DNA of 55,251 bases, filler included, from Sphacelaria rigidula (lineage: Eukaryota), in NCBI GenBank assembly GCA_964200075.2. It is 5 parts of 5 records of this genome, joined end to end, with 100 filler letters (N's around TTAATTAATTAA, not from the genome) between each part and the next. Parts side by side here need not be neighbours in the genome. Positions count along the whole stretch, not along the records: positions 44,282 to 55,251 come from CAXNAA020005609.1; 4 more parts are not named here. One strand, written 5' to 3'. This document shows, piece by piece, positions 47,750 through 52,923 of this stretch (the stretch's first letter is position 1; every line of letters begins with the position of its first letter). A program made the translations under genes and the position numbers. Below the pieces are notes generated by a model, which saw nothing but the letters and a program-made list of their open reading frames with translations, was not told the origin of the DNA and made no database searches.

Positions 47750-50700
47750 TCAATTTCTTCGTGTCAAGTTCAGATTCTGAACCTCATGGAGAAGCTTGAT
47801 ACGAGGACCTTTCGGGAACCCTAGGTCCTTGAGGTCGTCCTGATTGGCCAGGCCGTGCGTCGCGCGTTGTGTTTGATTGGGCAGAAGTAAAAGCAGGGGA
47901 GAGCAGAGACTTTCTGGGTTAGCACGATGAAAGCACTTACTTCGCGGTGCGTGTGTGGACAAAACGAAGAGACGGTGGCGCGACATCAACACACGGGAAC
48001 TCTAAAAACACGAAAGTACTCGACGCAAGCCGCGTTAAAAGATGGCACAGCAAAAAAATGAGACACAATTACGTAATCTGACATGCATGTACCTCGCCGA
48101 AGAGCCGGAGAGCGTCCATATCCACCTCCGCTTCCGCCAAGACCGGTACGTACTTGCTCAGATTCAATCGCGCGAGCATGTCGACCATGCCGCTGACCAT
48201 CGACTCCGTGCTGTTGACATTCTCTCGGCCCTCCTCGCCGCCGTCGCCCGCCGATCCCGACCTAGCCGAAGTAGAGTTGTTACCCGAAGGCCAGTCTGTA
48301 CCCGGACCTGAACCGCGGCCGTCACCACCCCCGGTGCCACCGGCGAAAGATCTACCGTTACTGCTCGTACTAGTAATGATTGCCGCAGCGGAGGACAGAG
48401 AAAAATCGCCGTTAGTAGTTGATGCTATCGGCGCAGACGTCGTCGACGGGGGCATCGTGCTCATCGCGGAATCGTGTAGGCTACAGCTGCCGCCGCCGCC
48501 GCCGCCACCGCTACCGCCGCCCTTGCCGTCACTGCCTAAAGGCGACCCCGTCCCCGACCCGCTCACGGACGCAACTCCCGATAACGAACTTGAAGGCATT
48601 CCGGACGTGGATCCCATACCCGATGCCGAGCCCGGCGACACGGGGACGCTTCCGCTTGCGAAGGTGCCGAGCTCGTCCCCCGCGAGCAATCCCGAACCAA
48701 ATAACAATCCCACAGGATTTCCGGGTGGAGATGTCGAGCTGGTAGAGTCTCCGCCCGCGGCACCGTTGGTTGTAGCAGGGCCGACGTTGTGGCCAACACC
48801 GCGGTCGCTGCCTCCACCGTTCGTCAAAAATTCTCCGCCAAGGAGACCTGGTCCGACCAATCTTTGATGGTCGTGCTGCCGTCGAGATCCATCGCCCATC
48901 TCGAGCATCGGCGCGTGTCCGAAAAGAGTTTCGTGAGGCGACGAGTGCCTTGGGGCTTGATGCGAAGAGGGTGCGGGCCCGGAAATTGATACGGGCGGCG
49001 AAACACCGAAGCCTGGTACGCCGTTGGATGCGCCGGTGCCAGGGACGCCGTCCATGTACAAGAGGCTGCTCGAGCCGTCGTAACGCTGCTGTTGCTGCCG
49101 CTGCTGCTGCTGCCGCTGCTGCCGCTGCTGCTGCGAAACGTCGGCAGCAATACCGCCATTGTTGACACTAGTGCTGCTGTTTCCGAGGCCAACACTGTCG
49201 AGGAACAGCCCGCCACCTCCCAGAGGAGGCGATGTCAGCGTGGGCGAGGACACAGGAATCGCCTGCGCAGGAGGCGGGAGAGCCGAGTGCTGTTGTCGTT
49301 GCTGCTGTTGCTGTTGCTGCTGCTGCTGCTGCTGCTGCTGCTGCTGTTGCTGCTGATGATGATGCTGCTGTTGCTGCTGCTGCTGCTGCTGCTGCTGCTG
49401 CTGCTGCTGCTGCTGCTGCTGCTGCTGTTGCTGCTGCTGCTGCTGCTGCTGCTGCTGCTGCCGATGCTGCTGCAGCTCCGGCGGCGGTGACTGAGAAACA
49501 GCCGGGGCGTTCGCGAATCCTCCAAACTCTCTTGGTCCAGGGACTTGAAGCGACGGGGCAACAGGTACGGCTGGCGCTGGAGGCTGTTGCTGAGGCGGCG
49601 GCGACTGCGGTTGTTGTGGCGCGCCGCCTTGCGAGTTCGATACCGGATGTGTTGCCATGCGCTCGTTACCGTCAGGAATCGTACCTGCACCCCGCGCATC
49701 GCTGCGGCAGGCGGTTCGATTGCGATTCCCGCCACCGCCGCCGTTCGTCGTCGGTGCCGACGAAGGTCGCGTATCCGATGTATCGTCGCTAGCACCGCCG
49801 CCACCGCCACTGAACCCGTTGATGCCAGCGCTGCCGCCCTCCCAGGCCGCCTTGGTGATCGGCGTGGTGCCTTCGATGTATCCGCGGAGGATACCCATGA
49901 GATACGCGCTTTTGTTATGGATGTCTCGGCGGTGCTTGGACGCCTCCTTGTAGTTCTTGAGCGCCGCTAAAGCCTGCTCCTCGCCGAGCCGTGCCAACTG
50001 CTTGATAAGCCCGACGTCCTCGAGAACTGCTTTGTCCTTCCCAGACTCGAACAGCTTTTCTAGCTGTTTACGCACGGACTCCTGAAGGTACGAAATGGGC
50101 CGAACGCCGCCATTAACAGGCCCCGATACGACCGAAGAAACGTGTTGTTTCGGTGCGCCGGCCGCGTTTACCGTAGAAACGCCTCCGTTGCCGTTCACCG
50201 GCCCACTTCTTGAGCCGTTCGCCATGGAGCCGCCGCTACCGTTCGCGAGCAAGTGCGCTTGAGTCAACGTCTTTGAGGGTGCCGCGGTGTGATGGTCGCC
50301 GTTTGAGGCTACCACCGGCATCGTTTGCGGTCCTCGCGACGACCCCTGCTGCTGTACGGCGACGTTGTTATGGTGGACGTTGTTGTTCGTGACGCCCACG
50401 ACCGCGACGCCGTCTTGGTACTGCTTGAGAAAGCCGATGAGGTATCCACATCGGTTATCGATCGCGTCCCGCCCCCGCCGCTGTACCGTCGCACGATACT
50501 TTTTCAGGGCTGCCAAGGCCTGCCGACCACAATGGGGGGCAAGGGATGGGGGGGAGGGGATGGCAAAGGACAAGAAGAGCAGAGTTTTCGATTACAATTT
50601 TCTTCATTCCGAGTCTTGAGAGTAAAATCCACCGCGGACTTGCGCGGGCCATAGGGTAGGTAGAGGGTGCTGGGAGTTTCGTTTTGTACTGAGGGTTTCA

Positions 50701-52923
50701 GCACAACGGCGCGGAACAGCCACTTTTGGAATCTACTGGTATTTTTTGTGATGAATCCCGAGGTACAAATAATCTGTTCACGACAGCGCACACCTGCCTT
50801 ACGCCTGCTAAACACTCGCGAAATGGAAGGCGGAGGCGAATGGGAGAAAAACATCCTCGAAAGATTGAGTACGGCCTGAGATGTTGTGGGCGAACTTAGA
50901 AGATCTTTGGCTAGAGATGAAGTGGGGGCTCCGGGCTCTTCAGAACTTGATGTTTCACTATTGATGGACATCAGTTGCAGTGAAGTGGATTCTAGAGATG
51001 AGGTGGGCTCCGGGCTCCCTAGAACTCAGTGTTTCACTGTGGATGGACTCACCCGCAGTGACGGGATTTGGCGACAGGGCGGGTTATTTTGTTATTTTGG
51101 CTCGCCACCACGCCGGTCCTACTGCTGATTCAATGCTACTAGGACGAAAAATCATGGATGCTCGGGAGCGCTAGTTGGGAACACGGGAAGGTACAAAATT
51201 AGACCAGGTATGACGTAGAGTAAGCTATATGTCATGGGCATAGCGCGGGGACAACGGCATGGCTGGGCATATACGCACCATGTATGCCGCAGGCAAAAGG
51301 GAAAGCGAGTACACCCAGTTCGCCACAACAGTACAGCAGGATCATCGTATAACGTGAGTCGGCGTCATGACAAGATCGCCAGGGCAGGATGATCGCAAAT
51401 GAACGAAGACGAACGGAAACGAGACCATATATCGATTATTGGGGAGGCAAACACACCGCCGTGATATGTACAAAACAGATACACGCGCCCACATCCGTAC
51501 GCAGTGGTCTGTACGGTACGACGGCGCTGCACAGCACAGTCCCTCACAGGCTGTCGATTGGTGCCTGAATAGAAAGAGGAGACGACGTACTCAAATACCG
51601 CTTTACCTACCGCCACGTGGCAACAAAAACAGCGGGTGGCACCAAGGACAGCGCCTGGACGGCGCTGTAGGTGCTGACTGTACTCTACGGTACTGTTGTC
51701 TGTGAACTGTGGTCATGAACGGGAGGGTTGGCCGACTACAACAGTACAAGGGTGCAGGGGTTGGCCACCAAATTCAAATTTCGAATTGCGGACCATTCTC
51801 GAAATCCACACTTCGTCAACGAAGCAGCCGTTCTAGCTCCTAGCTCGCTCTTCTTCACTTGCATTCATCTCAGCTCCAAACGTATCCTATCCTTGCCCCT
51901 CATCGTCTCCCCCCATATCACCCAATAAAACCTGCAACATCTTCAAGGGCGACATCAAACTACACGCCGCCCCCCCCAGGACCACTAAACACCAACCCAG
52001 CAGAGTGCAGAAAACTCTTTTTTTATTTTCAAACTGCATCTCCTTTTTCTCCTTGCATCCATCTCACCTGGTCCTCAGGCACCTTGGCCAATAGCTCCAT
52101 CAACGCGCGGTCCTCCAGTACCACCCTATCCACCACTGGATCGAAAACTCCATCCACTGCACGTCGCACCGCCGGGCTGAGCCTTTCCACTAGGCGTTGC
52201 GCCGAGCCGGGCGAGCCAGACGATGGGCCGAGCTTGTACGATTGGATGAGCGACATGAGATAGGCCGCTTTGTTCTGTATACGGCCGCTGCCCTGCCGCT
52301 GCACGTTTTGGCAGTAGGTGTCGAGCACTTTCAAGGCCTGCAGTATTTTGAAATGAACACGAGGAACACGGTGCAAAACGAGAATGAGAGCACCACCCAG
52401 AACCCGAAGCAATAGTACATAAAATCGTGAGAGGTTGACGACTGGTGGAGATGTTAGAAGTACTGGAGACTTCGGCGGTACTACTGTCTGTACCGTTGTG
52501 CAAAGTTGTGCAATGTGAAATCGTTGGTGCGCGCAAATGGGGGTGAACAGCCGAGTTCAGAGCGTTCTCTAAAACTAGTATAAACGTGCGCACTAGGATG
52601 CATATCGATGGTACATGCCCTCACAGGCAAGCGGGCATGGCTGAGAGAAGGCGTCACGAAAATCAAAATAACAACCGTATCCATGCAAAAGGAAAGGCGG
52701 AGGATTGCAAGGATCACTACATGTCTACTGCCATACAACGGGCAAAGAACCATACCTGTTTCGTCTGTAACTCGGAGAGACCATTCATCAGAGGTTCGTC
52801 CTTCAGCACAGAGCGGTCCTGATCTATCGAAAACACTTCCTCTGCCATTTTTCGAACGGGGCCCCGCAGCTTGTCCAATGGGCCACGGTTCGCCGCCGCG
52901 GAGCGCGTAGCTTGCCGAGGCAT
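47750..52923 (-). CDS. ~984-aa protein: three hnRNP Q/R N-terminal (NURR/AcD)-like repeats, polyQ/low-complexity region, C-terminal SAM domain; exons 52923-52756, 52337-52068, 50519-48093, 47839-47750
   Basis: GT-AG phase-0 junctions. Repeats end IQNKAAYLMSLIQSY, IDNRCGYLIGFLKQY and IHNKSAYLMGILRGY. SAM: MLARLNLSKYVPVLAEAEVDMDALRLFGE|DDLKDLGFPKGPRIKLL. The start codon is tentative. Confidence 0.9.
49290..49475 (-). repeat. coding (CAG/CAA)n polyglutamine tract
   Basis: About Q30-HHH-Q20 in frame. Confidence 0.95.
50912..51048. repeat. intronic ~80-bp-period duplication
   Basis: tagagatga.gtggg..ctccgggctc...agaact...tgtttcact...gatggac occurs twice. Confidence 0.8.

Follow-up and report, generated by a model that had tools for sequence, protein, structure and literature searches.

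The window analyzed here, a 55,251-nucleotide (nt) stretch of Sphacelaria rigidula DNA, filler included, carries a minus-strand gene of four exons and 984 codons, running from 52923 to 47750. Its product combines three NURR (hnRNP_Q_AcD) repeats, a long low-complexity spacer and a C-terminal SAM domain. The spliced frame of 984 residues is free of internal stops between an ATG at 52923 and a TGA ending at 47750, and all three introns have canonical ends and the same phase (Table 1). The predicted N-terminus is shared with the orthologues of Ascophyllum, Ectocarpus and Choristocarpus, and the reading frame meets a stop immediately above the ATG (the open frame spans 52717-52947).

Introns 1 and 2 are skipped exactly, at canonical ends, in contigs from three runs belonging to two studies; intron 1 is skipped in all three of these transcript-like runs. 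No compared run is recorded as RNA, and their nature was judged from the intron-skipping contigs: because the introns are skipped exactly, we take the runs to be spliced transcripts. A fourth, DNA-like run covers the introns with no joint and retains intron 1. One single contig joins exons 1-3, and transcript-like contigs cover exon 3 from 50518 down to 49700 only. The read and contig comparison spanned 49700-54100, with intron 3 and the CAG tract outside that range. The splicing supposed in an earlier note on this DNA is supported for introns 1 and 2 by these transcript-like contigs, and for intron 3 by the SAM domains of relatives, seven of which have a continuous SAM at this place, with 17 further frame-called relatives whose SAM match stops there. 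At 49884 one run differs by a third-position change that leaves the Arg unchanged.

At the 5' end, a transcript-like contig extends without splicing from 53335 to the donor of exon 1, and two more reach 53281 and 53210. The unspliced contig and the in-frame stop above the ATG together imply that these transcripts have no upstream RRM exon. Pfam scans of four window reading frames and of six orthologues found no RRM, and the same scans gave no match to a KH domain or to ankyrin repeats. Thus the absence of RRMs, including upstream ones, that had been proposed from the sequence is borne out. Early in the 5' untranslated region (UTR; 52924-53335, minus strand) are three short upstream ATG frames, through which translation of this gene might be regulated. 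A little farther upstream lie high-copy repeats with very high contig depth, at 53680-53765 and 53980-54095, adjoined by a TC/TG microsatellite at 54153-54265.

Could the architecture be an artefact of gene modeling, with separate genes joined into one or a Syncrip cut short? The contig comparison ends at 49700, before intron 3 is reached, and a Nemacystus model carrying a fused aldo-keto reductase shows that such models can err. This explanation is nevertheless barely credible and is largely refuted by three observations: a single 2427-nt exon holds both repeat 3 and the first part of the SAM, a contig spans the joints of exons 1-3, and independent models of five named brown algae, together with a transcript-derived protein, share the layout.

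Table 1. Features of the NURR-SAM gene, in window positions.
Feature	Position	Strand	Remarks
5' UTR	52924..53335	-	at least 412 nt, unspliced; 3 short upstream ATG frames (30, 8, 2 codons)
Exon 1, coding part	52756..52923	-	residues 1-56; first half of NURR repeat 1
Intron 1	52338..52755	-	418 nt, GT-AG, phase 0; within repeat 1
Exon 2	52068..52337	-	residues 57-146; second half of repeat 1, first half of repeat 2
Intron 2	50520..52067	-	1548 nt, GT-AG, phase 0; within repeat 2
Exon 3	48093..50519	-	2427 nt, residues 147-955; end of repeat 2, linker, repeat 3, low-complexity region, start of SAM
Intron 3	47840..48092	-	253 nt, GT-AG, phase 0; splits the SAM
Exon 4	47750..47839	-	residues 956-984 and stop; end helix of SAM
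NURR repeat 1	52233..52875	-	residues 17-91, split by intron 1; 33 bits, shuffle maximum 3.5
NURR repeat 2	50415..52187	-	residues 107-181, split by intron 2; 44 bits, shuffle maximum 3.5
NURR repeat 3	49875..50093	-	residues 289-361, uninterrupted; 60 bits
Low-complexity region	48198..49844	-	residues 372-920; 56% G/S/P/Q, 15% hydrophobic
Polyglutamine tract	49287..49460	-	32 Q, three His, 19 Q; species-specific
Three short conserved motifs	48684..48953	-	within low-complexity region
HE(S/T)LFG-type motif	48918-48953	-	21/26 family proteins
VGPGLLGG motif	48834-48860	-	24/26 family proteins
LFGSGLL motif	48684-48704	-	22/26 family proteins
SAM domain	47765..48188	-	residues 924-980, split by intron 3

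By sequence, all three repeats are NURR/hnRNP_Q_AcD domains. Each is about 75 residues long, ending in NKAAYL, NRCGYL and NKSAYL in repeats 1, 2 and 3, and the pattern N(K/R)x(A/G)YLxxxxxxY given in the earlier note fits all three; pairwise identity among them is 35-42%. Their helical character, also claimed there, is predicted from homology, by which each repeat would adopt a five-helix bundle. Repeat 3 passes the Pfam cut-off for PF18360 (hnRNP_Q_AcD) on its own (41.2 bits, cut-off 26) and matches the structure of human hnRNP Q (2MXT) at E=0.0014. Because repeats 1 and 2 are split by introns, the spliced protein was scored with a profile of 245 other NURR repeats, from which the SAM-bearing NURR family and its brown-algal paralogues were excluded. 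All three repeats score well above shuffled sequence (Table 1), in a control that is not fully independent, the training repeats having been found with a profile that contained the gene's own repeats; none of 600 shuffles reached the real score (maximum 6.3 bits). The assignment of the repeats to NURR thus holds up. In the ESM Atlas, the N-terminal part returns PF18360 clusters at 0.84-0.85, which we treat as a lead only, and the whole protein gives no usable feature match, with a poor model (pTM 0.23) and TM by query of at most 0.20.

The positions of the introns bear on how the array arose. Introns 1 and 2 lie at the same aligned position and in the same phase within repeats 1 and 2, a coincidence whose chance we estimate at about 1 in 200 if placement is uniform. 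We built a tree of 83 repeats over 73 columns, with 19 repeats from the family and 64 full-length repeats from 29 hand-picked other proteins. In this tree the 19 repeats of the SAM-bearing family cluster together (97/69), and the addition of repeat 1 from a brown-algal two-repeat paralogue, which is 46% identical to repeat 3, gives a well-supported group (100/96). Repeats 1, 2 and 3 each group separately across species. Because two repeats share an intron site and the repeats group together in the tree, the array most likely arose by internal duplication before the split between brown algae and Phaeothamnion. The first repeat of the paralogue, whose intron position would be of interest here, was not found in the stretches of its contig that were examined.

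The SAM domain is recognized less directly from the window, where Pfam gives only a SAM tail on the unspliced pieces (E=0.079). Among the six orthologues scanned, four pass the SAM_1 or SAM_2 cut-off and the other two models are truncated inside the SAM. Among solved SAMs the nearest are those of ANKS6 (7e-8), Bicc1 (6e-6) and SANS (4e-5), with ANKS4B and ANKS3 also matching and Arabidopsis Tric1 as a weak match; together with the orthologue matches, they uphold the reading of a spliced terminal SAM.

Between repeat 3 and the SAM lies the long Q/P/G/S-rich region that had been noticed earlier, whose composition predicts disorder. The length of this spacer varies among orthologues, and the NURR and SAM domains are far better conserved. 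Polyglutamine, which the earlier note had made part of the architecture, is not a conserved feature: the run of 32 Q is specific to S. rigidula, compared with longest runs of 1-10 in 26 related proteins, and runs of at most 10 in those proteins rule out the tract as a conserved functional part. One transcript contig appears, from its length, to end at the edge of the CAG tract, so the length of the tract rests on the assembly. We also discarded Ser-Pro enrichment as a feature of the spacer, since it is near expectation in four of five proteins. What is conserved in the spacer is a set of three short motifs, which are likely to be partner-binding sites. They occur in none of the 146 other NURR proteins listed below; VGPGLLGG and the HExLFG-type motif are present in Phaeothamnion, and all three are absent from a divergent transcript-derived pair.

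A search with repeat 3 recovered 21 proteins among 243 candidates. Named members of the family come from Ectocarpus (two entries), Nemacystus, Choristocarpus, Ascophyllum and Phaeothamnion, and one further, more divergent member is a transcript-derived protein. All but one of 25 family proteins match the family SAM profile in whole or in part; the model from Phaeothamnion stops close to where the SAM begins. The layout of three NURRs, spacer and SAM is, as far as sequence comparison goes, conserved in brown algae, Phaeothamnion and the one transcript-derived protein, in line with the narrow range expected of the NURR and SAM combination. When the repeats of the divergent member were used as query, four of 5897 candidates matched and nothing beyond the family was found; its SAM matched two of 185 candidates in a search insensitive enough to miss even the brown-algal orthologues. 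Both of these word-based searches covered a limited range of protein lengths.

Two database models of orthologues deserve comment. The Ectocarpus protein CBJ29703.1 / D7FLD5 is labeled 'similar to Ddhd2', and in it Pfam finds only PF18360 and SAM, and none of the DDHD, lipase and WWE domains. The label is mistaken and likely derives from the shared SAM domain. In the Nemacystus model (P0002) an aldo-keto reductase is fused ahead of the orthologue, whose usual N-terminus lies inside, and the fusion is probably a merger of gene models. Within the S. rigidula genome, two other NURR loci were seen at L001:1303-1710 (plus strand) and L003:1498-2641 (minus strand), counts that are lower bounds; they match RRM-less two-repeat proteins of Laminaria and of Scytosiphon/Discosporangium. 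No canonical Syncrip with NURR and RRMs was seen in this own-genome search, again as a lower bound.

A wider profile search changes which part of the architecture should be regarded as unusual. Among 1.84 billion representatives it gave 518 matches at E<=0.001, of which the best 150 were examined; 146 of these were new proteins (P0027-P0172) and form our comparison set, with the 368 lower-ranked matches outside it. Between two and six repeat matches are present in 138 of the 146, an RRM in only two, and KH, CCCH and RING domains in one (P0157, with a RING, several KH domains, two NURRs and a CCCH). The extra domains that pass Pfam cut-offs in these proteins are thus of RNA-binding types. Ranking by total score favors multi-repeat proteins and pushes ordinary Syncrips lower, and many entries may be fragments; nine are single-exon fragments of the SAM-bearing family itself, and fragments of its exon 2 account for eight of the 146. 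Named examples with tandem NURRs come from a euglenid, an oomycete and brown algae (Achlya, Neometanema, Laminaria, Scytosiphon, Discosporangium), and the databases call these proteins 'hnRNP Q acidic domain-containing protein'. None of the 146 has a Pfam SAM, and the family SAM profile scores none above 3.3 bits. The tripled, RRM-less NURR that the earlier note had found odd is therefore no oddity in itself. Judged from these sequences, tandem NURRs lacking RRMs are plainly common in protists, and the distinctive feature of the present gene is its SAM.

Two members of this set are worth recording separately. P0059, an unrelated three-NURR protein, has 60 C-terminal residues that look SAM-like by eye, score 3.1 bits and match no Pfam or PDB SAM; if this tail were a real SAM, the NURR and SAM combination would have arisen twice. 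In P0049, residues 44-78 match, faintly and below cut-off, the C-terminal domain of RepA from a bacterial plasmid (PF18008, E=0.015), which may be related to the NURR fold.

We considered what a protein of this layout might do. In Bicc1, three KH domains are followed by a long Gly/Ser-rich linker and a terminal SAM whose polymerization makes mRNA foci (PMC4561730). We suggest, giving the proposal an even chance, that the algal protein is a convergent Bicaudal-C analogue in which the NURRs would bind mRNA and the SAM would oligomerize it into foci. Such a protein would hold single-stranded mRNA at several weak sites along its NURR array. Its SAM would likely link one molecule to the next, head to tail, its spacer would bring in partners, and the bound mRNAs would likely collect in foci to be silenced or stored. 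RNA binding, SAM oligomerization, focus formation and any effect on translation are all properties that we infer. Isolated human or fly NURR binds 4-5 nt of RNA via helices 3 and 5 (PMC5827114), and because a single copy can bind short RNA, three copies could replace RRMs by avidity.

Alignment with the human domain supports part of this proposal. The helix-5 motif is kept, with Asn90, a basic residue at Lys91 (K, R and K in the three repeats) and an aromatic at Phe94; Gly97 is kept in repeats 2 and 3, and Lys100 is K in repeat 2 and R in repeat 3. The family repeats are also more basic than other NURRs, with a net charge of +1 to +5 versus -0.3 +/- 1.9 in 254 other repeats. The RNA-binding type of the second domains in other NURR proteins also speaks for the proposal, as does the stronger conservation of the domains than of the spacer. 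For the SAM, all four acidic mid-loop residues of Bicc1 (E900, D902, D913, E916) and four of its five basic end-helix residues (K891, K915, R925, K927) are kept in the alignment. The Tric1 SAM forms a helix of six subunits per turn via K234, D235, G241 and R243 (PMC11063897), and all four of these positions are likewise kept. Self-association of the algal SAM is thus plausible from its sequence.

The observations that weigh against a Bicaudal-C analogue concern the repeats, an Arg-Gly patch and the SAM, and no experiment on any family member was found in the portions of the literature searched. In the repeats, the position of Arg60 is occupied by Pro, Ala or Gly, and it is basic in none of 18 family repeats but in 201 of 254 others; in repeat 2 the residue just before it is an Arg. 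Two further positions that are basic in more than 80% of other repeats are non-basic in 16 of the 18, and all three are lost together in 16 of 18 family repeats versus 1 of 254 others. Human NURR itself is without the two further basic positions. In repeat 1, Ser stands at the Gly97 position. The joint mutation R60A/G97L, the only form tested being the double mutant, abolishes RNA binding by human NURR (PMC5827114). Because the Arg60 equivalent is lost, the RNA binding and condensate formation suggested for the protein should be viewed with caution. An Arg-Gly patch found in 19 of 26 family proteins is, in addition, missing from the Sphacelaria protein.

The altered surface of the repeats points either to a new RNA specificity or to a switch to protein partners. 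In the latter case the repeats would keep the NURR fold with a surface remade for protein binding, and the protein would be a SAM-oligomerizing scaffold that reaches RNA via partners only. The systematic loss of the three basic positions fits such a scaffold, as do the conserved spacer motifs, which point to protein partners, and the presence of the pure scaffolds ANKS6, SANS and ANKS4B among the nearest SAMs. The Syncrip domain was, moreover, first described as an APOBEC1-binding module (PMC5827114). We nevertheless consider a protein scaffold somewhat unlikely, given the greater overall basicity of the repeats, the retained helix-5 motif and the basic patches conserved in repeats 2 and 3 where helix 4 ends.

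On the SAM side, the position of Bicc1 Phe922 is a Lys here, and the best PDB match, ANKS6, is a SAM that does not polymerize. A large hydrophobic residue in the end helix is needed by Bicc1 (Phe922; PMC4561730) and by ANKS3 (Phe53; PMC4105859), and ANKS6 cannot polymerize for want of one (PMC4105859). These points would suit an RNA-binding adaptor with a SAM that does not polymerize by itself and would instead cap, or dock with, a different SAM protein, in the way that ANKS6 joins ANKS3: the acidic mid-loop is complete and the end helix lacks the Phe knob, which is the reason stated for ANKS6 (PMC4105859). Unlike that of ANKS6, however, the algal end helix keeps basic residues (KGPRIK) and matches the interface of Tric1, which oligomerizes with a Pro at the Phe922 position (alignment and PMC11063897). 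When the first part of the SAM was searched against the same genome, this gene was the only match, as a lower bound. An adaptor of this kind is, in our assessment, unlikely.

A nuclear regulator would require the repeats to bind DNA or nascent transcripts and the SAM to cluster chromatin sites, in the manner of Polyhomeotic or LEAFY; in a related version the SAM itself would bind RNA, as in Tric1 and Smaug. Polyglutamine and Gly/Ser tracts are common in transcription regulators, which we count toward this possibility, although the polyglutamine here is not conserved. The faint RepA match of P0049 could also be read in its favor. The tRNA-binding lysines of Tric1, K205 and K210 (PMC11063897), correspond to Arg and Lys in the algal SAM, but ANKS6 and Bicc1 have basic residues at the same positions too, and the comparison does not discriminate. 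The 27 PDB matches up to E=10 include no chain from Smaug or Vts1, nor do the 14 for the divergent member, and Polyhomeotic matches only at E=1.2. We find a nuclear or SAM-RNA role distinctly improbable.

Returning to the Bicaudal-C analogue, a more specific version of it would have brown algae and their near relatives building their own Bicaudal-C. They would have tripled NURR by internal duplication, rewired its RNA surface, with loss of Arg60 and a moved basic patch, and fused it to a polymerizing SAM, the result being an organizer of mRNA-silencing foci in a lineage whose multicellularity arose separately from that of animals and of plants. The protein would then stand as the most clear-cut example among the many unstudied protist proteins that recognize RNA by tandem NURRs in place of RRMs. 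Taken as a whole, this history is possible but doubtful.

The combination of two known domains described here is real, conserved and apparently undescribed. No description of a SAM-bearing NURR family or of tandem NURR proteins was found in the portions of the literature searched. Frequent domain fusions are reported at the origin of brown algae (bioRxiv 10.1101/2024.02.19.579948); 'hnRNP', 'sterile alpha' and 'SAM domain' are absent from the main text of that work, and its supplements may list the family. The Ectocarpus AGO paper makes no mention of hnRNP or granules. The sequences show NURR in use on its own, in tandem, across many protists, and joined to a SAM in a Bicaudal-C layout in one algal lineage. 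If the protein both binds RNA and oligomerizes, it would be a convergent design for mRNA foci and a direct handle on translational control in brown algae. If it does not bind RNA, NURR would be reverting to a protein-binding module. The surprise is limited, as both domains are known and orthologues are already in public databases. Targeted mutants have been made in Ectocarpus (PMC12867755).

Elsewhere in the window, paired N runs at 10972-11071, 22042-22141, 33112-33211 and 44182-44281 are joins of separate contigs, with a TTAATTAATTAA spacer between the two N runs at 44226-44237; because they join separate contigs, neighbors across them are no evidence of synteny. By eye, plus-strand open frames at 1158-4029 resemble degraded pieces of a retrotransposon gag-pol, one at 32421-32882 (plus strand) resembles an exon for a Tudor/Agenet-type domain, and a lysine-rich one at 41689-41940 (plus strand), with an FTRW...FICTL...FFNGVP motif, resembles an exon of a conserved eukaryotic domain.

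Comparison with known systems places the protein near several families. It fails a defining test of the Syncrip, Bicaudal-C, Smaug, DDHD2 and ANKS families alike, and so belongs to none of them. With hnRNP Q/R (SYNCRIP), of which RRM-bearing plant counterparts exist, it shares the PF18360 domain and the NKSAYL-type helix-5 motif, and it differs in having three NURRs in place of one, a SAM, no RRMs and no Arg60 equivalent. The RRM-less multi-NURR proteins of protists likewise have tandem NURRs and low-complexity linkers, and include the two-repeat paralogue whose repeat 1 is sister to the family repeats; in contrast to the algal protein they lack a Pfam SAM in the set listed, most keep the Arg60 equivalent, and their arrays expanded separately. 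The closest solved SAMs by sequence belong to ANKS6, ANKS3, SANS/USH1G, ANKS4B and Arabidopsis Tric1 (HP30-1), the last of which shares the PxGPR-type end helix, whereas the algal protein has neither ankyrin repeats nor a membrane domain. With DDHD2 it shares a SAM, but the DDHD, lipase and WWE domains were not found. The closest parallel in layout is animal Bicaudal-C/Bicc1, with three N-terminal domains of RNA-binding type, a long Gly/Ser-rich linker and a homologous C-terminal SAM that retains most of the same interface residues. The algal protein departs from it in using NURR in place of KH domains with their GXXG, and Lys in place of Phe922. With no sign in the sequences of common descent outside the SAM, we regard it as an analogue of Bicaudal-C and not as a member of that family.

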